Below, piece after piece: positions 1 through 47,333 of a stretch of DNA of 64,000 nucleotides (position 1 is the first letter of the stretch; every line of letters begins with the position of its first letter). Source of the DNA: a phage. The stretch lies in the sequence record PV467749.1; one strand, 5' to 3'. Under the pieces are notes generated by a model. It had not been told where the DNA came from. It did no database searches and worked only from the letters and a program-made list of their open reading frames with translations. The position numbers and the translations under genes are program-made.

Positions 1-939
1 GAAGATAACAGTAGTGATTGTCAATTGTATGAAGAGAAAGGTACTGGAAAAGTTTTTATCACTGGTAACACGAAGGCATTCACTGGTGTAACTGATAGAA
101 AAACTTTGTGGACGGACTGTACTACGTGGATAACATCAAGTGGTATTAATGTTTCTGATATAAAATACATGAGTAGTTTTTATGATATGAAGGTGAATTT
201 GATAACAAACGATGGTACATTGTATTGTTGTGGAGCTAACAATATATCGAACATATCATCATTTGGTGATGGCACAAACATTAATTCTTTTAACACATTC
301 AAAAGAGTAGATACTATAACTTCGGTTAAAAAGGCTGTTGGTAACATTTATTTGCGAGAAGATAATACTTTATGGGGTTGTGGTTTTAACTATTACTACC
401 AGTTGGGCACGGGTAATCAAACTTCTATTACTGGGGTGACGATGATTTCTTCGGATGTTATAGATTTTAATGTAAGTTATCAGAGTACATTTTTTATCAA
501 ATCGGATAATAATTTGTACGCTTGTGGTAAACAGTTCGGTGCACAATATGGGAACGAATTTGGTACAGGTGGTACTTCCTCTTCTACTGATATACAATAT
601 AAAACTCCGACATTATTGAGTTCAGGAGTTTATACTCTATATACTTGTGTTGGTAACATGGCATCACATATTGTCAAAGCAGATGAAGTTCTATATGCTT
701 CTGGATCGAATAGGTTTGGGCAATTAGGTGTTGGTAATAATAATAATCAGTACTCCTATACTCCTTCATATACTTCGTTTAATACTTCGTGTAATTTGGT
801 ACGCACTCCATCTGGTTCACTTATACTTACTGACACTTCGAAGTTATATTATTCGGGTGCTTCATTTGTAGTAATGGGTGGTGGTGCTGGACAGAACGTT
901 CTTAATTATACCGAAGTCGATATGTCATTTGTGCAGTAA
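1..939 (+). CDS. RCC1-like beta-propeller repeat protein, array paralog 1 (5' end lies outside window)
   Basis: Frame is open from base 1 (ORF track starts at a TTG). Repeated RCC1-type motifs are present (LWGCGFNYYYQLGTGN, LYACGKQFGAQYGNEFGTGG, LYASGSNRFGQLGVGNN). It is followed by the conserved hairpin/promoter cassette. Confidence 0.8.
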   Translation, partial: EDNSSDCQLYEEKGTGKVFITGNTKAFTGVTDRKTLWTDCTTWITSSGINVSDIKYMSSFYDMKVNLITNDGTLYCCGANNISNISSFGDGTNINSFNTFKRVDTITSVKKAVGNIYLREDNTLWGCGFNYYYQLGTGNQTSITGVTMISSDVIDFNVSYQSTFFIKSDNNLYACGKQFGAQYGNEFGTGGTSSSTDIQYKTPTLLSSGVYTLYTCVGNMASHIVKADEVLYASGSNRFGQLGVGNNNNQYSYTPSYTSFNTSCNLVRTPSGSLILTDTSKLYYSGASFVVMGGGAGQNVLNYTEVDMSFVQ

Positions 940-1012
940 ATTAATATGCCAGTACTTGAGTACTGGCTTTTCTTTTTGTATTAAATATAGTATAATGAAT
1001 AAGGGAGGAAAT
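940..1012 (+). promoter_or_regulatory. Array cassette junction: hairpin terminator (gccagtacttgagtactggc, 948-967) + T-tract + conserved promoter block (TATAAT at 991-996) + SD AAGGGAGG
   Basis: Inverted repeat CCAGTACT..AGTACTGG followed by TTTTCTTTTT. The downstream block tattaaatatagtataatgaataagggaggaaat is conserved upstream of most array genes. Confidence 0.75.
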
Positions 1013-2122
1013 ATGTTACCTTTTGTAAGAATGGTTAAGTACGGGAATATTGCACCAGTACCGAAAAAAATAAAGAAAGTTATAGCAGGATATGATAATT
1101 TATATGTACTATATGGTGATGGTTCGCTATATGGTTGTGGAATCAATAACTATCAACAGTTAAATATTGATGGAACTGCTACACAAAATAATTGGGTACT
1201 AATTACCAATGGTGTTAGTAATGCATGGGCTGGTGGATACAATATTTTATATTTGAAAGAAGATAAATTTATAATGCACGGAACTAATGTCTCATTAGGT
1301 TTAGGAAATACTACAATTCCATTAGGTGGAGTAGATGTAACTTCTTCATTCCCAGATATCTCTAATATTAAAATGATATCCATTGGTTTTGATTCAATGC
1401 ACTATGTTAGTGCTGATGGTACAACTGTATATGGAAGAGGTATGAACACAAATGGTTCTGTTGGTTCAGGTAGTACTTACTCACAGAGTACTTTCACTTC
1501 AGTACTGAATAATGGAACTAATCAGGTTATTGATATATTTGGTAACGTTAATAATACAGTGCTTCTAACATCGAATGGTGAGCTTCGAGCATGTGGGACA
1601 AGTGCTTATGGTTCTATAGGAAATGAAACTGGTAAGTGGACATCGTTTGGTTTAAAATTATCTGGCACTAAAATAATGGGTGGTAATGGGTATAGTACGC
1701 TTGCATATACAAATTCGGGAATGTACCACTCAGGGTGGCAGTTAAATGGGGAACTAGGAAATGGTTTAAATACTAACGTACAGGTATATCCATTTCAATT
1801 TAACTCTAAAACGATAGATAGCAAGATAGATAAAATTGCCAAATCATCATCTGGGTCATATGTTAACATGTACTCAACAACAGAAGGAAAGATATATACG
1901 ACAGGTTCGTTTGGTAAAAACGGGTCAACTACTGCATTGAATTTGTTCACCAATACATTAACACTTATAAATTACAATCCAGATACCGCCTCGTTGTATA
2001 CGTGCACAAACTTCAGTGTTGTGTATGATGGTAATGAAACTATTGCTGTAAGTGGTAGTCCTACATATGTACCAGGGGGCGTTGCCGCTAATAGATGGAC
2101 TACAATTCCATTACCCAAGTAA
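1013..2122 (+). CDS. RCC1-like beta-propeller repeat protein, array paralog 2 (N-term MLPFVRMVKYGNIAP)
   Basis: ATG at 1013 lies 5 nt after SD AAGGGAGG. The ORF-track upstream extension (878-) reads through the promoter and is not credible. Motifs: LYGCGINNYQQLN, VYGRGMNTNGSVGSGS, LRACGTSAYGSIGNETG, MYHSGWQLNGELGNG. Confidence 0.85.
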   Translation: MLPFVRMVKYGNIAPVPKKIKKVIAGYDNLYVLYGDGSLYGCGINNYQQLNIDGTATQNNWVLITNGVSNAWAGGYNILYLKEDKFIMHGTNVSLGLGNTTIPLGGVDVTSSFPDISNIKMISIGFDSMHYVSADGTTVYGRGMNTNGSVGSGSTYSQSTFTSVLNNGTNQVIDIFGNVNNTVLLTSNGELRACGTSAYGSIGNETGKWTSFGLKLSGTKIMGGNGYSTLAYTNSGMYHSGWQLNGELGNGLNTNVQVYPFQFNSKTIDSKIDKIAKSSSGSYVNMYSTTEGKIYTTGSFGKNGSTTALNLFTNTLTLINYNPDTASLYTCTNFSVVYDGNETIAVSGSPTYVPGGVAANRWTTIPLPK

Positions 2123-2190
2123 TACTATGCCAGTACTTGATACTGGCTTTTTTTTGATTAAATATAGTATAATGAATAAAGGAGGGAATT
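2123..2190 (+). promoter_or_regulatory. Array cassette junction: hairpin terminator (2129-2147) + T8 + conserved promoter block (TATAAT 2168-2173) + SD AAAGGAGGG
   Basis: gccagtacttgatactggc tttttttt gattaaatatagtataatgaataaaggagggaatt ATG. Near-identical copies recur across the array. Confidence 0.8.
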
Positions 2191-3318
2191 ATGTTACCTT
2201 TTGTTAGAATGTTTGATTATGGGAATATAATCGAAGTTAATAATATAAAGAAAAGTGTTGTTAGTTACACTCTTGAAATGTTTCTAATGCAAGATGGCAC
2301 TGTATATGCACACGGTGAAGATTCAAACTATAATGCGGGTTTAAGTACACAGTTTGTATCGTTAGGAGCAGTTCAACAAATCACAACTGAAGTTGATGAC
2401 TTATGGTTAGGATCGTTTTCCGTTGTTATTAAAGGTGATAAAATATATGGTTCAGGTTCAACATATGCATTCACGAATTCTAATACTTTCCAACAAGGAT
2501 ATACTGACTGGGCTGTGTATTTCACTGGTATAGATGTTACCCAAATTAAAAAAATGTTATGTGGTTATACAGCATTTATATTAATGAAAGACGGAACACT
2601 TTATGGAAGAGGATGGAATCGAAGTGGTGCATTAGGTTTAGGACATAAAAATTATGTTTCAGCGTGGACTGTACTTGACACTAATGTGGATAATATATTT
2701 GGCGGTTACCTTGGCGATACATTGTTTAAGATTAAAAACGATGGAACTGTATATGGTTCAGGTTCAAATAACAGCTTTCAAGTTAAAGCAACATCGGGTG
2801 ATGCAACCACATTTGTTCCATTGTTTGATGATATATCTTATGATATAAAATGCAGTTTTGTTTCTGGTGTTGGTTTTGTAATGATAACATCTGATAATAA
2901 AATATATACAACTGGAACTACTTTTGCTGGTAGTGGTGCACATAGTAAAGTTTTTGATGTTGGTTTTACTATAGGTGATATGAGTAATATATATCATCCT
3001 GATTCGTTGGACTATTCGACTAGTGTTGTATTTTTAATTAATGCAGATACAAACAAACTAATAGCAACTGGGCATACCCCATTTACGGGAAGTAGTTCAA
3101 GTTCCCTTCCATATTTTACAGCATTTCAAGAATTCAATTTTACATCGTTCAATTCGAATACACGATATAGTGGGTCTTTATACTGGAATACATTTTACGA
3201 AGGTAATAATGTATGGATGAATGGATATAATCCTGAAAATACGGGTGGAAAGAATTTCTCATTGTGTTCAATACCGTTAGATACTATTATTACTAAGCAA
3301 ATTGATTTACCTTTTTGA
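2191..3318 (+). CDS. RCC1-like beta-propeller repeat protein, array paralog 3 (N-term MLPFVRMFDYGN)
   Basis: Strong SD with 8-nt spacing. Motifs: VYAHGEDSNYNAGLS, IYGSGSTYAFTNSNTFQQG, LYGRGWNRSGALGLGHKN, VYGSGSNNSFQV. Confidence 0.85.
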   Translation: MLPFVRMFDYGNIIEVNNIKKSVVSYTLEMFLMQDGTVYAHGEDSNYNAGLSTQFVSLGAVQQITTEVDDLWLGSFSVVIKGDKIYGSGSTYAFTNSNTFQQGYTDWAVYFTGIDVTQIKKMLCGYTAFILMKDGTLYGRGWNRSGALGLGHKNYVSAWTVLDTNVDNIFGGYLGDTLFKIKNDGTVYGSGSNNSFQVKATSGDATTFVPLFDDISYDIKCSFVSGVGFVMITSDNKIYTTGTTFAGSGAHSKVFDVGFTIGDMSNIYHPDSLDYSTSVVFLINADTNKLIATGHTPFTGSSSSSLPYFTAFQEFNFTSFNSNTRYSGSLYWNTFYEGNNVWMNGYNPENTGGKNFSLCSIPLDTIITKQIDLPF

Positions 3319-3388
3319 ATACTATGCCAGTACTTGATACTGGCTTTTTTTTTGATTAAATATAGTATAATGAATAAAGGAGGGAATT
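3319..3388 (+). promoter_or_regulatory. Array cassette junction: hairpin terminator (3326-3344) + T-tract + conserved promoter block + SD
   Basis: Same conserved sequence as 2123-2190. Confidence 0.8.
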
Positions 3389-4510
3389 ATGTTACCTTTT
3401 GTTAGAATGTTTGATTATGGAAATGAAGTACCTGATCCTAGTTCGGGATTTCGAATAATAAGTACAGGAGACGCATTACTATTAATTACTAAGAGTGGTG
3501 ATTTGTGGGTGCGTGGTTATAACCGTTATGGTAAGTTAGGTATAGGTAATAACACCACTACCTATGTACTTGATTGGACGAAGGTTAGAAGTGATGTAAA
3601 GTTTGCGTGTGGTAGTGGATTGGTAACAGTTATCTTTACTAAGGATAATCGCATATTGTACTGTGGTGACAAATGGTTTGAAACGGGTGGTGTTGGTAGT
3701 GCACAGATTTTCACATGGACAGATGTTACGCATCAATTTGGGGTAGTAGATTTGAGTACTGTAAGGGATATGAAAATATCTTATTACGCGATTGGGTTAG
3801 TTACTACTAATAATCAATTATACGCTAAGGGATTTGATAATAACCTATCATTTGGTGGGGTTACTAATAAGGCGACTGCTGTGTTTATTGCGAATAATGT
3901 ACAAGAGTTGTATACGAGTTTAGTTAGTACTATCTACGTTGATACAAGTGGTATATTACATCGTTGTGGCATGAGTGATAACGGTTCGTTGGGTAATAAT
4001 GGTAGTTTAACTTCGTATCTAAGTTATTCACAGACTGGTATGACGATTAAGGACATTGGAATGATGACTACGAACACTGGGTTATTATATACTGATTCTA
4101 GTGCACGCACGAGATATTTTATTGCTGGACAGAACTTGAATAAACAGATGGGTAATGCGGCGGGTGCGAGTGCCATTACGAGTACTTACACAGAGCTTTC
4201 TGGTAGTGTTGATAAGTTTTCTTCTTTATGGGAGAATGATGGGATATTGATGACATTTGCTGTGGGTAAGAACACTAATCAGTTATTTTATGCTGGGATG
4301 AATACTTTTCATGCGAGTGGTGGTGAATCTTCATATGCGGATACATATGAGTTAGTCCCGATGGTGTTTAATGACATACAGGAAGTGTTATGTGCACAGC
4401 GTTTATCGGTGGTACATGATTCTACGAAGTGGTATTACTGTGGTGATGCTAATTCAATGTATGGTTTACCGGACGTAAGTACTTTTACTGAGTTACCGTT
4501 GCCCTTTTAA
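3389..4510 (+). CDS. RCC1-like beta-propeller repeat protein, array paralog 4 (N-term MLPFVRMFDYGN)
   Basis: Motifs: LWVRGYNRYGKLGIGNNTT, LYCGDKWFETGGVGS, LHRCGMSDNGSLGNNGS, FIAGQNLNKQMGNAAG. Confidence 0.85.
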   Translation: MLPFVRMFDYGNEVPDPSSGFRIISTGDALLLITKSGDLWVRGYNRYGKLGIGNNTTTYVLDWTKVRSDVKFACGSGLVTVIFTKDNRILYCGDKWFETGGVGSAQIFTWTDVTHQFGVVDLSTVRDMKISYYAIGLVTTNNQLYAKGFDNNLSFGGVTNKATAVFIANNVQELYTSLVSTIYVDTSGILHRCGMSDNGSLGNNGSLTSYLSYSQTGMTIKDIGMMTTNTGLLYTDSSARTRYFIAGQNLNKQMGNAAGASAITSTYTELSGSVDKFSSLWENDGILMTFAVGKNTNQLFYAGMNTFHASGGESSYADTYELVPMVFNDIQEVLCAQRLSVVHDSTKWYYCGDANSMYGLPDVSTFTELPLPF

Positions 4511-4581
4511 TAATAGGTCAGTACTCAAGTACTGGCTTTTCTTTTTGATTAAATATAGTATAATGAATAAAGGAGGGAATT
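4511..4581 (+). promoter_or_regulatory. Array cassette junction: hairpin terminator (tcagtactcaagtactgg, ~4518-4537) + T-tract + conserved promoter block + SD
   Basis: Conserved cassette sequence. Confidence 0.8.
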
Positions 4582-5763
4582 ATGTTACCTTTTGTTAGAA
4601 TGTTTGATTATGGGAACGTCGTTGAGCCACCTGTGGGTACACGTTATACCTGTAGTGACTATAGTGCGACTTATAGTTTAATAAAGGATGGTGTGTTATA
4701 TGTATCTGGGATGAATAACTATTATCAGTTAGGTAATAACACTAACGTAACACGTTACAACGAGTGGTTAAAAGTTCCAGAGACTGATAGTGTTAAGTTT
4801 TGTAGTACTGGTTATAGTCAGACAATGTATCTGACTAACAATGGTAGGATAATGATAGCAGGTGAAGATCCTACTTCCAGTGCGACTTCGGTAAGTGTAA
4901 AGGTTTGGACGGATATAACTTCTAGATTTCGTGCAGTTGATACTAAAAAGATTGTTTATATTTCAATAGAACGCTTTGGTGTAATGATGATCATGGAAGA
5001 TGGTTCAGTATGGGCGTGTGGTGTTGATAATACTGGTTGGAGTGGACAAGGGAGTAAGACTGTTGGTTTCTTTACTTTCAGACAAATATACACCGGAAGT
5101 GCAGGAAGTGCAGTTGCTTGTACTGCTGGTACTGGTACTGCGAGAATTCTGTTAGCTAATGGAACAATCTTGTCCTCTGGTACTAATACATATCATCAAT
5201 GTAATGCTAGTACTAATCCGGCTGTTCTAACATTCACTGAATCATTCCCTGGGGTTGATCCTTCATTGATATATCAAATCAAGATGTGTAATAACAACTG
5301 TATTATATTTTTGAGTGATAAGAGATATTACGGTACTGGCTGGGGAAGTTTTGGTGCATTGGGTGATGGTGATATTACGGGTTCGAATAATAAATTCTAT
5401 GCAGGTACATTGTCAGTTGCTCCTAAAAACATGCGTGCTTATATGTCGTATCTATGTAGTTCTTCTGGGGATTCTAGTATGTACATAGGCGATGATAATT
5501 TCATATACACCTGCGGTTATCGTGGGAGGAACTTAATAAATGCCACTACAGATATTGGTACGTTCACGAAATGCATTCAAAGTGCACAAGGATACAAGAA
5601 TGGACTTATATATAGTGGGAATTATTGTGCTGTAGTTTTTGATCCAGATTTGGGTTCAGGAATGTCATATGCGGTTTCATCACCAAAATTGAATTCTCCA
5701 GCACCACAGGCTAGTGTTCCAGCATTGGGTATGAGTTCGTTACAATCTATCATTTTACCATAA
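4582..5763 (+). CDS. RCC1-like beta-propeller repeat protein, array paralog 5 (N-term MLPFVRMFDYGN)
   Basis: Motifs: LYVSGMNNYYQLGNNTN, VWACGVDNTGWSGQGS, YYGTGWGSFGALGDGD. Confidence 0.85.
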   Translation: MLPFVRMFDYGNVVEPPVGTRYTCSDYSATYSLIKDGVLYVSGMNNYYQLGNNTNVTRYNEWLKVPETDSVKFCSTGYSQTMYLTNNGRIMIAGEDPTSSATSVSVKVWTDITSRFRAVDTKKIVYISIERFGVMMIMEDGSVWACGVDNTGWSGQGSKTVGFFTFRQIYTGSAGSAVACTAGTGTARILLANGTILSSGTNTYHQCNASTNPAVLTFTESFPGVDPSLIYQIKMCNNNCIIFLSDKRYYGTGWGSFGALGDGDITGSNNKFYAGTLSVAPKNMRAYMSYLCSSSGDSSMYIGDDNFIYTCGYRGRNLINATTDIGTFTKCIQSAQGYKNGLIYSGNYCAVVFDPDLGSGMSYAVSSPKLNSPAPQASVPALGMSSLQSIILP

Positions 5764-5837
5764 ATGATACCAGTACTGAAATACGTACTGGTATTTTTTT
5801 GTAAATACATTATAATTATTATATGGAGATTTTAGTT
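5764..5837 (+). promoter_or_regulatory. Variant cassette junction: hairpin terminator (taccagtactgaaatacgtactggta) + T7 + variant promoter (ttgtaaatacattataatt) + SD GGAGA
   Basis: Uses the same AGTACT-type hairpin. The promoter block diverges but keeps TATAAT. Confidence 0.65.
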
Positions 5838-6968
5838 ATGTTACCTTTTGTTAGAATGTTTGATTATGGGAATACAGTGGCTGCTCCCACTGGTATAAAG
5901 GATTTCCAAGCAAATGGAAGCCACTGTATGGCACTAACATATAGTGGTGAGATGTGGGCTTATGGTACAAGTACAAGTGGATCAATGGGAACCGGATTCA
6001 CGGTGGGTGCTGCTGATAAGGGTTGGTACAAGTCTAACATTAGTAATGTTAAATCATTCAGTTCTAATATGCAGACTAGCACAGTGGCTTTGACAAATGA
6101 TGATAGAGTGCTAGTTTGTGGCTCAACTAGATTTGACAAATTCAGTACTCCAGATATTGCATCATCTAACCTTGATTGGTTGGATGTTACTGATCATATT
6201 CCACAGGAAGTTATTGATGCTGGGATGAAGCAAGTTATTAACCACGCATATTATGTTGCCATTTTTACTGAAAACAATCTATTATATAGTGTGGCATTAT
6301 CTTTGGGTAATACTAGTACTATAATAGATAGAACATGGCGAAGAAATACATTTGGTGATATACAAGTTGAACGTGTTGTTTCGTTGACACAAACCCCAAG
6401 TGGTCCTTTGTGTATAGTTCAAGATGCTGCCGGATACCAGTATGGTATTGGATATAATGGTAATAAGATTATTGATAATACTTCCACTAATTCATATTCT
6501 GTATATACCAAAATGGGTACACTTCCTTACAATGAATTTGCCATATCGAATAGCGGGAAATTCAGTTCAGCGGTATTATCAGATGGGAGAAGTGTTTATA
6601 GTGGTACATTTCCAAAGTCATTCAATGATAGTTTTGGTTCATTTTTGAAAGTTGGTGCGGTATCAAATACTGTGTTTGGTTTAGATGCAAAAAATATGCG
6701 TGGTCAATATGGTCAAAATCAATTACCAATTGCGTCGGCTGATAACAATGCAAGTAATGGCGTTGTGAGCCTTCGTAATGTTCCAGCGGGAACACAAACG
6801 AAAGACATTCGATTTATATGCGGAAATGATGTAAAGAACGTTTATATCATATACACAAATGAAGACGGCATTAGTTCATTTTATGGATTGGGACCAAACT
6901 TTGATCAAAATTCCTCAGCATATGCACAATTCGTCAAAGTGGATTTGCCAGGGGCATTACTAAATTAA
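5838..6968 (+). CDS. RCC1-like beta-propeller repeat protein, array paralog 6 (N-term MLPFVRMFDYGN), first of a 3-gene operon
   Basis: The ATG at 5838 starts the conserved MLPFVRMFDYGN. The ORF-track start at 5823 adds 5 residues and has no SD. The propeller motifs are divergent (MWAYGTSTSGSMGTG). Confidence 0.8.
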   Translation: MLPFVRMFDYGNTVAAPTGIKDFQANGSHCMALTYSGEMWAYGTSTSGSMGTGFTVGAADKGWYKSNISNVKSFSSNMQTSTVALTNDDRVLVCGSTRFDKFSTPDIASSNLDWLDVTDHIPQEVIDAGMKQVINHAYYVAIFTENNLLYSVALSLGNTSTIIDRTWRRNTFGDIQVERVVSLTQTPSGPLCIVQDAAGYQYGIGYNGNKIIDNTSTNSYSVYTKMGTLPYNEFAISNSGKFSSAVLSDGRSVYSGTFPKSFNDSFGSFLKVGAVSNTVFGLDAKNMRGQYGQNQLPIASADNNASNGVVSLRNVPAGTQTKDIRFICGNDVKNVYIIYTNEDGISSFYGLGPNFDQNSSAYAQFVKVDLPGALLN

Positions 6969-6978
6969 GGAGAGAAAT

Positions 6979-8181
6979 ATGTTACCTTTTGCGAGGATGG
7001 TTAAGTTCGGGAATATTGCACCAGGGCCAGAACCAATAGAGTTCTCAAATGTTTTACAACAACATTATACAAACTGTATGTATCTACATAGCCCAACTAA
7101 TACTTTATATGGTTATGGTAGTAATAACTTTTATCAATTTGGTCTTGGGAATTCAGCAGCAGTTGCGTCATTTACAGTACTTGCAACGCGATGTGCAGCC
7201 TTTTGGCTTGGTGTTCAAGGTTCATTGATGATTGATTTGGATAATAAAATATACTACACTGGGTCGGTTGGTGCATTTTCTGATTATGGAGATGCAACAC
7301 CTGTTAATGGTTATTTGAGAACATGGACTGATGTTACTGCTTCATTTAATAAAATTGGTGTTATGGCTAATATGATCAAGAGTGTATATATAGGTGAAAG
7401 TACTAGAATATTATTAACCGATGGTAGAGTAATTGCGTGTGGAAGAAATACCAATGGTGAATGTGGGTCTGGTAATCGAAATTCCATACCTACACTAACA
7501 GTTATGACTAATATGGGTGAAGTTACACATATGGCATGTTCATTACAAGGAACGCACTATATTAAATCAAATAAAAAGGCATGGTTTTGTGGTAAGGATA
7601 ACTTCGGTGAAAGTGGTTGTGGTGCTAGTTCTATGATATATTTGAACAAATATGTGATGAGTGATGTCGAACATATTAGTACTACATACGATGTTACTTG
7701 GTGGTTTACTACTGGTGGGCCTGTATATTATAGCGGGGCTAACAGTACTGGACAAGCTGGTAATGGTACGACTACATCGGTAAATCAGCTAACACCAATT
7801 AGGAACACATCGGTCACGGTTGATGTAAGTAAGTACAGTACTTTTATTTGTCCAAGTAATATGGGAAATGCATCAATTGGTGCACCTATGGCACAATACG
7901 CACCATATGTTAGAAGTAGTGGTGCTAACGGATACGGTCAAGAAGGTAATGGAACTAATACATTAGTTAGGACTTGGAATATTTTTAATCTTAATGCAAT
8001 AAGTGGTGGTTATGACAATGTTCTTATGGCATCTAAAGATTGGAGCAGAACCATAATAATTACTAAAGATTATAAATTATATGCATGTGGTGGCTGGAAT
8101 GGTAATGGTGGTAGATTGCCTGATGGCACTTATAGTATTACTACACTAACATTAATGCCAACGCAGTTATGGCAACAATAG
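6979..8181 (+). CDS. RCC1-like beta-propeller repeat protein, array paralog 7 (N-term MLPFARMVKFGNIAP)
   Basis: SD AAGGAGAG lies 10 nt after the stop of paralog 6. No terminator or promoter cassette intervenes. Motifs: LYGYGSNNFYQFGLGNS, VIACGRNTNGECGSGN, WFCGKDNFGESGCGAS, VYYSGANSTGQAGNG. Confidence 0.85.
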   Translation: MLPFARMVKFGNIAPGPEPIEFSNVLQQHYTNCMYLHSPTNTLYGYGSNNFYQFGLGNSAAVASFTVLATRCAAFWLGVQGSLMIDLDNKIYYTGSVGAFSDYGDATPVNGYLRTWTDVTASFNKIGVMANMIKSVYIGESTRILLTDGRVIACGRNTNGECGSGNRNSIPTLTVMTNMGEVTHMACSLQGTHYIKSNKKAWFCGKDNFGESGCGASSMIYLNKYVMSDVEHISTTYDVTWWFTTGGPVYYSGANSTGQAGNGTTTSVNQLTPIRNTSVTVDVSKYSTFICPSNMGNASIGAPMAQYAPYVRSSGANGYGQEGNGTNTLVRTWNIFNLNAISGGYDNVLMASKDWSRTIIITKDYKLYACGGWNGNGGRLPDGTYSITTLTLMPTQLWQQ

Positions 8182-8189
8182 GAGGAATT

Positions 8190-9299
8190 ATGTTACCTTT
8201 TGTAAGACTATTTGATTATGGGAATATTACCTCTGGTCCTAAAAATATAATTAAAGTTGGTGCTTCTACTCAAGGTCAATTCGTATTGACTGATTCACAT
8301 GAATTGTATTACATAGGCAGAAATCAAGGTGGTGAATCTGGAAATGGTAATAAAAACACGGTATCTTCTTGGACATTAGTAAGTGCAGATGTTTCTAATT
8401 TTTTCACTGGAGGACGAACACTTGTTATTATTAAAAATGACAATACGATATGGACATCAGGTGAAACATTTTGGTTCACATCATCATCAACAACTTCTTA
8501 CAGTACTACATTAGTTGATAGAACGGAGTGGTTTACAAATACAATTCCTGTGAATCAAATTGCTAATATTGTATGCAATGGTGGTGTAATATTTGTACTC
8601 AGTTCAAGTTCAGTACTCTATGGTGCTGGGGCTAATGGATACCGTGGTGTATTGGGGATTGGTTCTTCATCAATATATACATTAACACTATGTGCTTCTA
8701 ATGTGCGTAAAGTTATGTCTACTCCTAATGATAGTATGTATATTAGCATAGATAATAAGTTATATAGTTCAGGGTGGAATGACCGTGGATTACATGGCAC
8801 AGGGAACAGAACACAAGTTAACATTTGGGGACTGCGTAGTTCTGGTGTAATAGATGCAGCTATTGGTGGACATACACTCAATTACTATAATGGTACATCA
8901 TATTTCACATGTGGTACAACTCCAAACTTTCTTAGTTCAGATTCAACTACATTCAAAGCAGTTCCTGTAAGTACTTTACCTAATAATTCACCTTTGTTTA
9001 TGACAAATTCAGAGGCAACAAGCACGGCTACGCAAATTATATTAACTAGTGCATATCAGAAAGGTATTGGGGGAAACCGTGGTTTGGGATTAAACAATTC
9101 TCAAACGGGTGCTATCTATAGTGCTGCTAATTTACAATTACCTGTAGAAGTTAGTGAGATTAGTGATGTTGCTTTTAGTGACGGATTAACATCATTATTA
9201 ACCAAAGACGGGAATGTATATAGTACTGGATCGTATTACGCCATTCCAGGTGCAAGTGCAGATGTTGCAGTCTTTACTAAAATTGATTTACCAAAATAA
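8190..9299 (+). CDS. RCC1-like beta-propeller repeat protein, array paralog 8 (N-term MLPFVRLFDYGN)
   Basis: ATG at 8190 follows AGGAGGAATT. The region 8169-8189 overlaps the end of paralog 7. Motifs: LYYIGRNQGGESGNGN, LYGAGANGYRGVLGIGS, LYSSGWNDRGLHGTGN. Confidence 0.85.
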   Translation: MLPFVRLFDYGNITSGPKNIIKVGASTQGQFVLTDSHELYYIGRNQGGESGNGNKNTVSSWTLVSADVSNFFTGGRTLVIIKNDNTIWTSGETFWFTSSSTTSYSTTLVDRTEWFTNTIPVNQIANIVCNGGVIFVLSSSSVLYGAGANGYRGVLGIGSSSIYTLTLCASNVRKVMSTPNDSMYISIDNKLYSSGWNDRGLHGTGNRTQVNIWGLRSSGVIDAAIGGHTLNYYNGTSYFTCGTTPNFLSSDSTTFKAVPVSTLPNNSPLFMTNSEATSTATQIILTSAYQKGIGGNRGLGLNNSQTGAIYSAANLQLPVEVSEISDVAFSDGLTSLLTKDGNVYSTGSYYAIPGASADVAVFTKIDLPK

Positions 9300-9369
9300 C
9301 ATAATGCCAGTACAGAGTACTGGCTTTTCTTTTTGGTTAAATATAGTATAATGAATAAAGGAGGGAATT
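9300..9369 (+). promoter_or_regulatory. Array cassette junction: hairpin terminator (gccagtacagagtactggc) + T-tract + conserved promoter block + SD
   Basis: Conserved cassette sequence. Confidence 0.8.
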
Positions 9370-40933: not shown

Positions 40934-40979
40934 TAGATATTCCTCGATGGTTAATCATCCATCTCTTCGAGATGTCTGT

Positions 40980-41560
40980 TCGCTTCTAATACTACGTATT
41001 CTACGCGAATGAATCATAACTGTCAAGGACTTTTAATATTGACGGGATTTGAGGAAGGGATTTTTCTTCCCCCCGCACGGAGGGAAATTTGACGCTGATG
41101 GTATCAGAGCTATTGCATTGAAGATTACTCATAACGAGTGCGAAAGCGGGTCATCCTGTTTCTCTCTACTTCAGTTTCATATGACGGTCTACACTTTTAA
41201 ACATAGTGTATCTTCATTAAGTATCTATGCAATCAAATACTTAATGTGAGTACTCAAATTTTGGACGCAACTTTCCTGTACAAAATTCGATAACTCTCCC
41301 TTAGATAATTCGTAAGGTGTTATCCTTATATGTCTATCGAGGAACCACCAGCTATCCTAACGTGGTTCTTTATACAGCCGCATTGCCGTGAGGGGTTCAA
41401 ACTATGCCCACATCTAACGGGTTTCTTTTGCTGTTCGCTACAATGAAAAGCTCATCTATCCTTTACATTTTCAAGTGAAGTAGGGGAAGATTGTCAGTAC
41501 CAGTACTGTCATTGTGATTGTACATAGATCATTGTATCACCATTAATAAATTTGTCCCAT
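40980..41560. ncRNA. Long ORF-free structured region (candidate ncRNA / regulatory element), strand undetermined
   Basis: About 580 nt without a credible ORF, in an otherwise gap-free genome. It contains strong local hairpins (ggaaccaccagctatcctaacgtggttc; ttcttccccccgcacggagggaa). Confidence 0.35.
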
Positions 41561-41566
41561 AAAAAA

Positions 41567-41587
41567 AGGCTGACCGAAGTCAACCCT
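41567..41587 (-). terminator. UUCG-hairpin terminator (copy 7) downstream of sigma-factor gene
   Basis: aaaaaaaggctgaccgaagtcaaccc ttt, immediately 3' of the stop at 41594. Confidence 0.75.
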
Positions 41588-41593
41588 TTAATC

Positions 41594-42559
41594 TTAAAAA
41601 TCTTCGAACTCATAACCTTTTGTCTTAACCATCTTACGCAGTCGTTCCATTGCTTCAGAGTACTTACGGTGCAATGAAGAACGAGCAGTCATGACCTTAC
41701 CCTTCTCATCTTCAAAACCACTCTCAATGATTTCTCGTAGCGTTTCTGGTTCAGAATAAGAACCAATACCATGTACACGTTCAATCAATTCACGGTCTTT
41801 GGCAGATAGGTTACTCATCATTTCTGCAATACTTTGTACCAGTGGGGTACTGACAGTTTCTACGCCTAAGTTGTAATCAGGTTCAACTGAAGTAACAATG
41901 TCAGATAATGTACTTTCTGAATCATTACTCATTTTCATATTCAATGCTACATAAGTGTTATTGTAAGTTAGACAATTCTTAACGTGTTGAATCTCAATAC
42001 CAGTCTCTTTTGACACCATCTCAGGAGTTGGGTATTTACCATGTTTCCTTTGATACTCTTCTACACAACGTTTCACATAAATGTTATTAACACTCATATA
42101 ACGTGGGAAATGCACTAGATAATTAGCATCCGCACTTTCGTTATAGATTGTCATGTACACAGTTGTTGTTGCATATGTAATGAACTTAACATTTTTGGTA
42201 GTGTCGAACGTATGAATTGCTCGCATTAAACCTTCAACACCATAAGAAATCTTATCTTCAAATGGGATAAAACATGTACACTTACGTGCAACACTTACTA
42301 CCATTGGATAGTTGTAGCGAACCAAAAGGTCAATGTTCTTTTCAACGTCAATACCATCACGCACTGCTTGGATGAGCATTTCATTCGTTATCCCTTTAGG
42401 GCGAGTTAAGCTGATACCTGTTTTTGGTTTCTCAAACTTGTGACCGTCATGTTCTTCTTCTTCGACGGAATCAAGAGCCTCTAATACGTTGACTTCTTCA
42501 CTAGCAAAACACTCATCCAGTACTTCTTCAGAAATTGCATTTAAATCAAGCTTTTTCAC
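41594..42559 (-). CDS. Sigma-70 family RNA polymerase sigma factor (phage-encoded)
   Basis: 321 aa. Region-2-like segment KFITYATTTVYMTIYNESADANYLVHFPRYM. Region-4-like HTH LSAKDRELIERVHGIGSYSEPETLREIIE. Confidence 0.7.
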   Translation of the reverse strand: MKKLDLNAISEEVLDECFASEEVNVLEALDSVEEEEHDGHKFEKPKTGISLTRPKGITNEMLIQAVRDGIDVEKNIDLLVRYNYPMVVSVARKCTCFIPFEDKISYGVEGLMRAIHTFDTTKNVKFITYATTTVYMTIYNESADANYLVHFPRYMSVNNIYVKRCVEEYQRKHGKYPTPEMVSKETGIEIQHVKNCLTYNNTYVALNMKMSNDSESTLSDIVTSVEPDYNLGVETVSTPLVQSIAEMMSNLSAKDRELIERVHGIGSYSEPETLREIIESGFEDEKGKVMTARSSLHRKYSEAMERLRKMVKTKGYEFEDF

Positions 42560-42581
42560 TTACTTCTCCTAATGAATGAAA

Positions 42582-43079
42582 TCAAAAACGGTATACATTA
42601 ATATTATCATCGGTATAGATATCATGGTTATGAACATCCATGAAGGTATCAAATACCTTATCAAGAAGAGTATTATACTCTTCATGTACTGCTGCATCAA
42701 GCATGTATTCACCACCACTACCCATAAAGAATGTATAATCATTATGGAGATAATCAATCTTCTTGGTAAACTTACCCTTATTAACGATTAAGTGAATGAT
42801 GTAATCTTTTGACACAAGAACACAGTGACAACTCGCCTTGCGGTCTGGTATCACAGTCTCTTGTGAAATCAAGTATCTCAGTACTTTGTTAATTTCACTA
42901 ACTTCACCGCAAGCACTAAACAGTCGGTCGTGTACATACAATGTTTTTTGTGAAACTACACCATAACTAAGTTTTGGTTTCAACGGGAATAGGTTCAAAA
43001 ATGAACGTTGCTCAGTTGATGTCACTTTTGAATCAGTAAGTAATACTCCCAAGCGTTTATCAATATAAACAGTCGTCAT
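42582..43079 (-). CDS. Hypothetical protein
   Basis: 165-aa ORF. Confidence 0.6.
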   Translation of the reverse strand: MTTVYIDKRLGVLLTDSKVTSTEQRSFLNLFPLKPKLSYGVVSQKTLYVHDRLFSACGEVSEINKVLRYLISQETVIPDRKASCHCVLVSKDYIIHLIVNKGKFTKKIDYLHNDYTFFMGSGGEYMLDAAVHEEYNTLLDKVFDTFMDVHNHDIYTDDNINVYRF

Positions 43080-43766: not shown

Positions 43767-43840
43767 AATGTTTTCCTTTTTAGCTGATAATTAAATTAGG
43801 AGCACATTGTACTCCATGTTATTGGTTAAGTCAAATACTT

Positions 43841-47217: not shown

Positions 47218-47333
47218 AAAATCCCCTTATTGATATTCCATTTAAGTATACGTCAAAAACACAACTCAGTCAAGGTGCTTTTTTACCTATCTAGAATAAA
47301 TACGTTATAATAATTATACCAATGGAGGGATGA

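Follow-up and report, generated by a model that had tools for sequence, protein, structure and literature searches.

A phage-encoded sigma-70-family factor, its candidate promoters and a proposed three-sigma relay

Which promoters are read by a sigma factor that a phage brings into its host? The question is raised by a 321-aa open reading frame (ORF) on the minus strand of a stretch of phage DNA from record PV467749.1, which was analysed over its full length of 64,000 nucleotides and is called here the window. The region of this ORF is 99.1% identical to Escherichia phage fEgEco12, in which the ORF is g519, 'RNA polymerase sigma factor'. It lies in a block of early-type genes, and the plus strand of the window carries an array of RCC1-like genes with promoters of a different kind. 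The initial annotation had proposed that the ORF encodes a sigma-70-family factor which redirects RNA polymerase to the promoters of the array. We found that the protein is indeed such a factor, while another group of promoters, called here class III, is the better candidate target, because an element at the -35 position is what one expects of a sigma factor whose region 4 is conserved.

The model that we consider the best, and to which we give an even chance of being correct, is a relay from host sigma-70 to the phage sigma-70-like factor and from this to a gp55-like sigma, in which both the pairing of factors with promoter classes and the timing are deduced from the DNA sequence. Host sigma-70 would read the promoters of class II, and the sigma gene, the last of its operon, would thereby be made early. 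The phage sigma-70-like factor, on the host core enzyme, would read class III, including the promoters of replication genes, of tRNAs and of the gene for the gp55-like protein, and the gp55-like sigma would then read the TAAATA late promoters, those of the RCC1-like array included. The array would depend on the sigma gene only indirectly, because the cascade passes through the gp55-like sigma.

Domains, residues and orthologues of the sigma factor

The product of the ORF is a sigma-70-family protein in which an acidic N-terminal extension (aa 1-55) is followed by a region 1.2-like segment and by regions 2, 3 and 4. Both peptides that the initial annotation had quoted for regions 2 and 4 occur in the product: KFITYATTTVYMTIYNES spans aa 125-142, and LSAKDRELIERVHGIGSYSEPETLREIIE spans aa 251-279. 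The classification by hidden Markov models suggested there gave a positive result for region 2 (Pfam Sigma70_r2, PF04542, 37.2 bits against a cut-off of 24, aa 79-141), and also for region 3 (Sigma70_r3, PF04539, 44.9 bits against a cut-off of 25.3, aa 162-224), while Sigma70_r4 (PF04545) has no match in the ORF and region 4 is shown by alignments and by structure prediction. The alignment with TIGR02393 reaches aa 296 and those with sigma factors in the PDB reach aa 308-319; MAFFT pairs the GK motif and the recognition helix with residues 577-600 of sigma-70; and in the AlphaFold (AF2) model, based on 19 family members, four helices are found at aa 233-313 (pLDDT 73-88) with a short insertion in the turn. 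The same model has confident sigma-2, sigma-3 and sigma-4 domains (pLDDT 72-88) and a disordered acidic N-terminus, and by Foldseek it is closest to sigma-S, SigA and sigma-70, with 240-280 columns aligned. A PDB sequence search retrieved SigB, SigA, RpoS and RpoD with E-values from 1e-17 to 1e-14, spanning aa 63-319, and the sole PHROG matched by the ORF is PHROG 351, 'RNA polymerase sigma factor' (E 3.8e-48).

All the NCBIfam sigma models can be aligned to the ORF, with scores that remain far below the curated cut-offs for RpoD_Cterm (96 against 354 bits), RpoS (82 against 379) and SigB (83 against 464). The same is true of FliA/sigma-28 (TIGR02479, 61.4 against 189.6 bits), the name under which one relative, WPEC3, is annotated. 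Concerning gp55, the ORF has no match to the family profile, and the gp55-like protein is the product of a separate gene, g336 in fEgEco12.

The best matches in both sequence and fold are group 1/2 sigma-70 factors (RpoD, RpoS, mycobacterial SigA/SigB), which have the region 1.2-like segment and regions 2.1-4.2 in the same order; region 1.1 is lacking in the phage protein, where the 55-aa acidic and family-specific N-terminus takes its place. In an alignment with E. coli RpoD from MG1655, the phage factor retains F419, K426, F427, T429 and Y430 of region 2, with conservative exchanges of E420 to D and of R423 to K. Region 2.2 is partly conserved (D403, I405, G408, G411, L412 and M413 retained; Q406, E407 and N409 altered). 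We propose that the protein binds the host core RNA polymerase and directs initiation.

Other positions are clearly different from those of sigma-70. The melting dyad W433/W434 is replaced by TT, and the dyad is absent in all clades of the family (TT, SS, SA or VS). In regions 2.3/2.4, R436/Q437 are changed to YM, T440 to Y and R441 to N, and in region 3.0, H455 is changed to Y and E458 to V. The recognition helix of region 4.2 keeps R584, while E585 and R586 are both S, R588 is H and Q589 is R. The GK motif before this helix is conserved and is preceded by an insertion of 7 residues, which the AF2 model presents as a small beta-hairpin; this insertion and the low NCBIfam scores set the phage protein apart from the group 1/2 factors. 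Thus, among the canonical residues of regions 2.4 and 4.2, a lack of which would, in the initial annotation, have spoken against its reading, several are replaced (Q437, T440, R588 and Q589) and R584 is kept. Because the replacement residues are conserved within the family, the pattern looks like diverged specificity more than decay; conserved in this way are PRYMSV in region 3.0, the GK motif of region 4.2, H297 and the N-terminal MKxLDLNxIxEEVLDECF.

A tblastn search gave full-length and intact orthologues, 36-99% identical and mostly annotated as sigma factors, for at least 71 jumbo phages of the RaK2/121Q/CBB-like kind; these orthologues include, besides fEgEco12 g519, 121Q gp167, the genes of phAPEC6 and GAP32, RaK2 ORF244 and CBB_513. 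In the RaK2-like phages it is the same gene, in the same early block of small genes, with 36-60% protein identity to the other clades and no material difference from the sigma of the window. Since the gene is annotated in the records of relatives and mentioned in papers (PMC5259590, PMC7247149, PMC13070987, PMC7824862), its identity was already known as an annotation. The relay was also largely anticipated by the CBB paper, where the sigma orthologue lies in a predicted early region, three comparable promoter classes are predicted for CBB and two of their motifs are seen in GAP32 (PMC5259590). A comparative analysis describes 'group 2' jumbo phages as having an RpoD-like sigma together with a minimal gp55-like one. 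As to the distribution of the gene, Gp519 is listed as absent from Ecwhy_1 in the fEgEco12 paper (PMC13070987); by BLAST, the sigma region is present in Ecwhy_1 (MH791411.1), where it is 98.6% identical and bears the annotation 'similar to RNA polymerase sigma factor'.

Promoter classes and the box at -35

The whole fEgEco12 genome was assembled, its genes were called and the upstream regions were examined, resulting in four promoter classes. Class I, AAAAAG-TACTTGCA-N17-(G)TATAAT-GTTTTACATC, is found in the fEgEco12 terminal repeats, outside the window, at 1-21 kb and 355-374 kb (L002 and L008), in 36 copies (18 per repeat). Each of these promoters is followed by a hairpin in the 5' untranslated region and by one small gene, and the -35 is unlike TTGACA.

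Class II, TTGAC(A/T)-N16-18-TAnnAT, is of the host type and occurs 20 times in the window against 0.7 expected, 19 times on the minus strand. The enrichment and the strand bias are limited to this near-consensus subset: the built-in sigma-70 promoter scan, with all its matches taken together (59 against 63 expected), is uninformative in bulk. One class II promoter lies ahead of a four-gene operon, in which genes for proteins of 86, 139 and 165 aa (the last with an HslV-like annotation) are followed by the sigma gene, and from its type and place it may be the early promoter of this gene. The view that the early block has host-like promoters, as put forward in the initial annotation, was therefore correct.

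Class III consists of G(A/G)GACA or AGGACA, a spacer of exactly 16 bp and TA(T/C)AAT, almost always with TGn before the -10. In fEgEco12 the strict box with N16 gives 19 sites, all on the coding strand, against 0.3 expected, and with the relaxed box all but one of 25 sites are found on the coding strand (24 against 1). On these counts, class III is a genuine class of promoters. Downstream of it are the DNA polymerase operon and the genes for the clamp, gp32, primase, exonuclease, a Dda-like helicase and topoisomerase II, and also nucleotide-metabolism genes, the gp55-like g336, a tRNA gene and a non-coding element in each of its four copies. As annotated, g336 (L005:40974-41912) has a start that lies over the class III promoter of this gene (record positions 190988-191015); its match to the PHROG starts at aa 36, and the real start is probably 191073.

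The new element here is the covariation, apparent from the alignments, of the -35 box with region 4.2 of the sigma factor (Table 1). The clade-specific box is seen at orthologous promoters, and no box was found in the sequence of a clade that uses a different one. In EJP2 the box is GAGACA despite a sigma that is only 39% identical to that of fEgEco12, with backbone proteins 65-84% identical. To our knowledge, host sigma-70 is essentially invariant across these enterobacterial hosts, so that a clade-specific box implies a phage-encoded reader.

Table 1. Box at the -35 position and region 4.2 residues of the sigma factor in five phage clades. Residues are numbered by sigma-70 R584/R588/Q589 (alignment). 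In the RaK2-like row, promoter counts come from the OU509535 genome and sigma residues from RaK2 itself.
Phage	Host	Box	Frequency	Sigma 584/588/589
fEgEco12	E. coli	G[AG]GACA	9 per 100 kb	R/H/R
121Q-like	E. coli	G[AG]GACA	9 per 100 kb	R/H/R
EJP2	E. coli	GAGA[CT]A	7 per 50 kb	R/H/R
RaK2-like	Klebsiella	TGAACA	8 per 100 kb	R/H/Y
CBB	Pectobacterium	GAAAC[GA]	7 per 50 kb	K/S/R

A tentative reading, for which the chances are a little short of even, is that in RaK2/121Q-like phages a three-sigma relay replaces the appropriation of the host sigma by MotA/AsiA of T4, and that the altered region 4.2 (R584/H588/R589), with the beta-hairpin inserted in its helix-turn-helix, reads the clade-specific box. 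If the relay is true, sigma factor and promoters would have co-evolved away from the host TTGACA, towards GAGACA (phages of E. coli), TGAACA (RaK2) or GAAACG (CBB).

Several observations weigh against an assignment of class III to the phage factor. Class III has a strong TGn extended -10 and matches the -35 consensus at 4 of 6 positions, and host sigma-70 could probably use it unaided. The phage factor is without the sigma-70 residues that read TG (H455 and E458 being Y and V) and without the melting dyad W433/W434, Q437 and T440; therefore its reading of the -10 or extended -10 is not predictable from sigma-70. The clade-specific box also follows the host genus (E. coli, Klebsiella, Pectobacterium), and because there are only three specificity groups, the covariation with sigma is inseparable from an effect of the host or of a third factor. 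Finally, no study of the expression or biochemistry of a sigma from a RaK2-like phage came up in the literature searched.

The explanation that competes most closely with the relay is that host sigma-70 reads class III through the extended -10, either unaided or with a MotA/AsiA-like activator, and that the phage factor has another job, which could be the terminal-repeat class (AAAAAG-TACTTGCA-N17-TATAAT) or a competition for core enzyme that shuts off host transcription. We regard it as unlikely, although it would account for the nearly universal TGn of class III and for the loss of the TG-contacting residues in the phage factor, and the 36 copies of the terminal-repeat class in fEgEco12 are very tightly conserved. 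The middle promoters of T4 likewise have a phage-specific box upstream of a sigma-70 -10 element, as class III has one upstream of its extended sigma-70-like -10. Moreover, AsiA has been reported in some group-2 jumbo phages (Iyer et al.). However, the clade-specific box stands at the canonical -35 with a fixed spacing of 16 bp, as for sigma region 4, whereas the MotA box of T4 is centred at -30, and its identity follows the putative base-contacting residues of the phage sigma. The terminal-repeat genes would normally be transcribed first, at a stage when no phage sigma has yet been made. The 670 annotated coding sequences of fEgEco12 include neither MotA nor AsiA, a result that refers to the deposited annotation only, as no sensitive search for MotA, AsiA or gp33 was made.

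The relay that we prefer follows the same logic as the cascade of the Bacillus phage SPO1, in which the host sigma transcribes early genes including that of the gp28 sigma, gp28 redirects the host core enzyme to the middle promoters, and from these the late factor, gp33/34, is supplied. It differs from SPO1 in that the proposed late factor is a minimal sigma of the T4 gp55 type and not a sigma-70-like pair, and in being a cascade deduced only from genome sequences. The phage is T4-related, and it resembles T4 in its TAAATA-type late promoters, its gp55-like protein and its sliding clamp (annotated in fEgEco12 as g359); the complete sigma-70-like factor found here is absent in T4.

The RCC1-like array and the late-type motif

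The initial annotation had attributed to the array a conserved block of its own. This block, TTGATTAAATATAGTATAAT, is real, with 4 exact and 7 near copies, all on the plus strand at 977-17684, against 0.09 expected by chance. Its 'TTGATT' portion does not stand as a promoter element: it differs among the copies (TTGAT, TGTAT, TTTAT, TTGGT, TTTTG, GGGG), and being unconserved it is not a -35 element, while 17 bp upstream of the array TATAAT one finds the T-run that ends the terminator before it. The invariant part, in 12 array promoters of the window, 13 of fEgEco12 and 12 of EJP2, is TAAATA-N3-TAT(A/G)AT, with a variable 3-nt spacer. A terminator hairpin lies directly 5' of all the window promoters but the last (17670); each has an ATG 17-22 nt downstream, and a Shine-Dalgarno sequence follows the promoter. 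With a conserved upstream block of its own, the array is probably a temporally separate regulon, as had been proposed.

That the array is late and of the gp55 type seems to us fairly likely. The T4-type late promoter has a TAAATA core (-11 to -6 of TATAAATA), no conserved -35 and an AT-rich downstream part (PMC2988020), and this core is present in all the array promoters (12/12 in the window, 13/13 in fEgEco12, 12/12 in EJP2). Class IV of fEgEco12, (A/C)TAAATA, is a T4-type late motif and precedes genes for capsid, portal, sheath, tube, fibre, baseplate and holin. The composite TAAATA-N3-TATAAT is also found before the tail-tube gene g298 and the structural gene g507. As for the factor, the gp55-like sigma g336 of fEgEco12, outside the window, matches phrog_12791 (E 1e-152) and phrog_234 (E 1.5e-16).

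The distribution of promoters between strands is in line with this. In fEgEco12, classes I, II and III are divided between one strand and the other as 36/0, 92/3 and 24/1, respectively, and the genes for tail fibre, baseplate, virion, holin and RCC1 proteins are on the opposite strand. On that strand TAAATA starts 26 of the 29 transcription units (13 of 16 when the array is excluded), and no class II or class III promoter was found at any of the 29. T4 has early and middle transcripts of one polarity, and both polarities only for late ones (PMC2988020); the polarity of fEgEco12 mirrors that of T4 and thus points to a late-type array.

Other data weigh against a late-type array. The base before TAAATA in the fEgEco12 array is T in 10/13 and G in 3/13 promoters, while at the 43 late-type sites outside the array it is A 26 times, C 10 times, G 6 times and T once, so that the array motif does not have the A or C upstream base of the others; among T4-family phages this position is the more variable one (PMC2988020). 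A weight matrix trained on the flanks of non-array TAAATA sites, and applied to flanks only, fails to separate array sites from random TAAATA sites (array -1.9 to -4.4, control mean -4.2, training mean +0.2). The TATAAT of the array is conserved as expected of a sigma-70-type -10. Apart from this, a literature search found no transcriptome for any phage with an RCC1-like array and no paper on the timing of RCC1 expression. We do not claim the array motif as a canonical late promoter, and because the weight matrix failed, the late-type claim rests on the core, on the composite at structural genes and on strand polarity.

The array could instead be read directly by the phage sigma-70-like factor, as the initial annotation had it, with TATAAT as the -10 and TAAATA as a non-canonical upstream element, and would then be a private regulon of this factor. 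Such a direct reading is improbable, though it would explain why TATAAT is (near-)invariant, with the variants TATGAT and TATAAC altering the positions that matter least or most in a -10 of the sigma-70 type, and why the T or G before TAAATA is atypical for late promoters of this phage. The protein also retains the -11A pocket (F419 and Y430, with D for E420 and K for R423), and the conserved family-specific PRYMSV of region 3.0 could read an unusual extended element. However, the array promoters have nothing at the -35 position, though the protein has a conserved region 4, and their 'TTGATT' half varies between copies. The composite also serves the tail-tube gene and another that is annotated 'structural protein', and the array lies on the strand with TAAATA-type units only, opposite to the sigma gene. 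In EJP2 the array keeps the same TAAATA-N3-TATAAT core and about 89% DNA identity in the matched stretches, yet the sigma is 39% identical. A gp55-like sigma is present in relatives, and class III fits the sigma-70-like factor better; of the options considered, control of the array by this factor has the least support.

That the sigma gene is a decaying or non-functional relic is hardly credible: the absence of canonical residues in regions 2.3/2.4 and 4.2 (W433/W434, Q437, T440, R441, E585 and R588) and of a Pfam Sigma70_r4 match would agree with it, but the ORF is intact and well placed behind its Shine-Dalgarno sequence, its length is constant across at least 71 genomes, the replacement residues are conserved within the family, the three domains fold confidently in the AF2 model, and the W dyad is also missing from several alternative sigmas of group 3 (sigma-28, for example) and group 4.

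An experimental assignment of the promoter classes to the two phage sigmas would show for the first time how transcription is programmed in a large group of phages of E. coli and Klebsiella that are used in therapy, and would provide a natural series of specificity pairs of sigma and -35 box. It would also give the timing of the expanded RCC1-like array and so constrain what its proteins do.

Concerning the history of the array, that of EJP2 (L015, EJP2 316.7-338.6 kb) was compared by megablast with window positions 1-13041; 35% of the 20-kb query is matched, with a DNA identity of about 89%, while the replication proteins of EJP2 are only 65-84% identical and the sigma only 39%. These figures suggest that the RCC1-like array has been exchanged horizontally, and recently, between clades.

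Features around the sigma gene

The positions of the features discussed are reported in Table 2. The sigma gene is followed by 660 bp that contain no ORF. This stretch belongs to a set of four paralogous non-coding elements in the fEgEco12 genome, of about 430-480 nt, which have long invariant blocks in common and, each of them, a class III promoter directly 5'. RNAalifold predicted 71 pairs from the four copies, 30 of them with compensatory double changes, and Rfam has no family for the element downstream of sigma; the four are a candidate new family of structured RNAs. In the related phage PA5oct, four non-coding RNAs have been defined by RNA-seq.

Table 2. Features of the window, with the paralogues of the non-coding element in fEgEco12.
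Feature	Position	Strand	Basis or context
Sigma-70-family coding sequence, 321 aa	41594..42559	-	ORF translation; GTG start at 42559
Shine-Dalgarno AGGAG	42566..42570	-	6 nt 5' of the sigma GTG; read from sequence
Intrinsic terminator GGTTGAC-TTCG-GTCAGCC, then T7	41561..41586	-	directly 3' of the sigma stop codon
Host-type (class II) promoter TTGACT-N17-TACAAT	43806..43834	-	nearest upstream of the sigma operon
Class III promoter GGGACA-N16-TACAAT, TGA before -10 (TGATACAAT)	41531..41558	-	directly downstream of the sigma terminator
Class III-type promoter GGAACA-N16-TATAAT, TGA before -10 (TGATATAAT)	58855..58882	-	directly upstream of tRNA-Ser (58755-58844)
ORF-free conserved element, candidate structured RNA	40950..41525	-	proposed to be transcribed from the class III promoter; no Rfam match
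Paralogues of the non-coding element, fEgEco12	L003:9850-10400, L004:10630-11100, L005:45725-46190		
Twelve RCC1-like array promoters (T/G)TAAATA-N3-TATAAT, last copy TATAAC	982..17684	+	motif scan
Array promoter starts	982, 2159, 3357, 4550, 5802, 9338, 10581, 11832, 13082, 14336, 15757, 17670	+	
Composite A-TAAATA-CGT-TATAAT	47297..47311	+	before the fEgEco12 g507 orthologue ('structural protein'), the only plus-strand gene inside a minus-strand block

The gene that adjoins sigma upstream (42582-43079, minus strand) corresponds to g518, which precedes g519 in the fEgEco12 record and is annotated there as 'ATP-dependent protease subunit HslV'. None of the three genes co-transcribed with sigma, this one included, has a match in Pfam; the HslV-like product opens with MTTV, resembling the N-terminal Thr of HslV.

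Modules in which a terminator and a promoter overlap were found on the minus strand of the window at 33459-33430, 29864-29835, 26822-26793 and 22200-22171. Their hairpin is GGGTTGAC-TTCG-GTCAGCCC with a T-run, the 5' arm provides the -35 TTGACT, and the -10, TG(C/T)TATAAT, comes directly after the T-run. The terminator of the sigma gene has the same hairpin, but there a class III promoter comes next.

A tRNA cluster at 54.3-58.8 kb contains tRNA-Thr, tRNA-Asn and two tRNA-Ser, and within it lies a group I intron (56433-56747, minus strand; RF00028, 99 bits) that covers the full length of the model.

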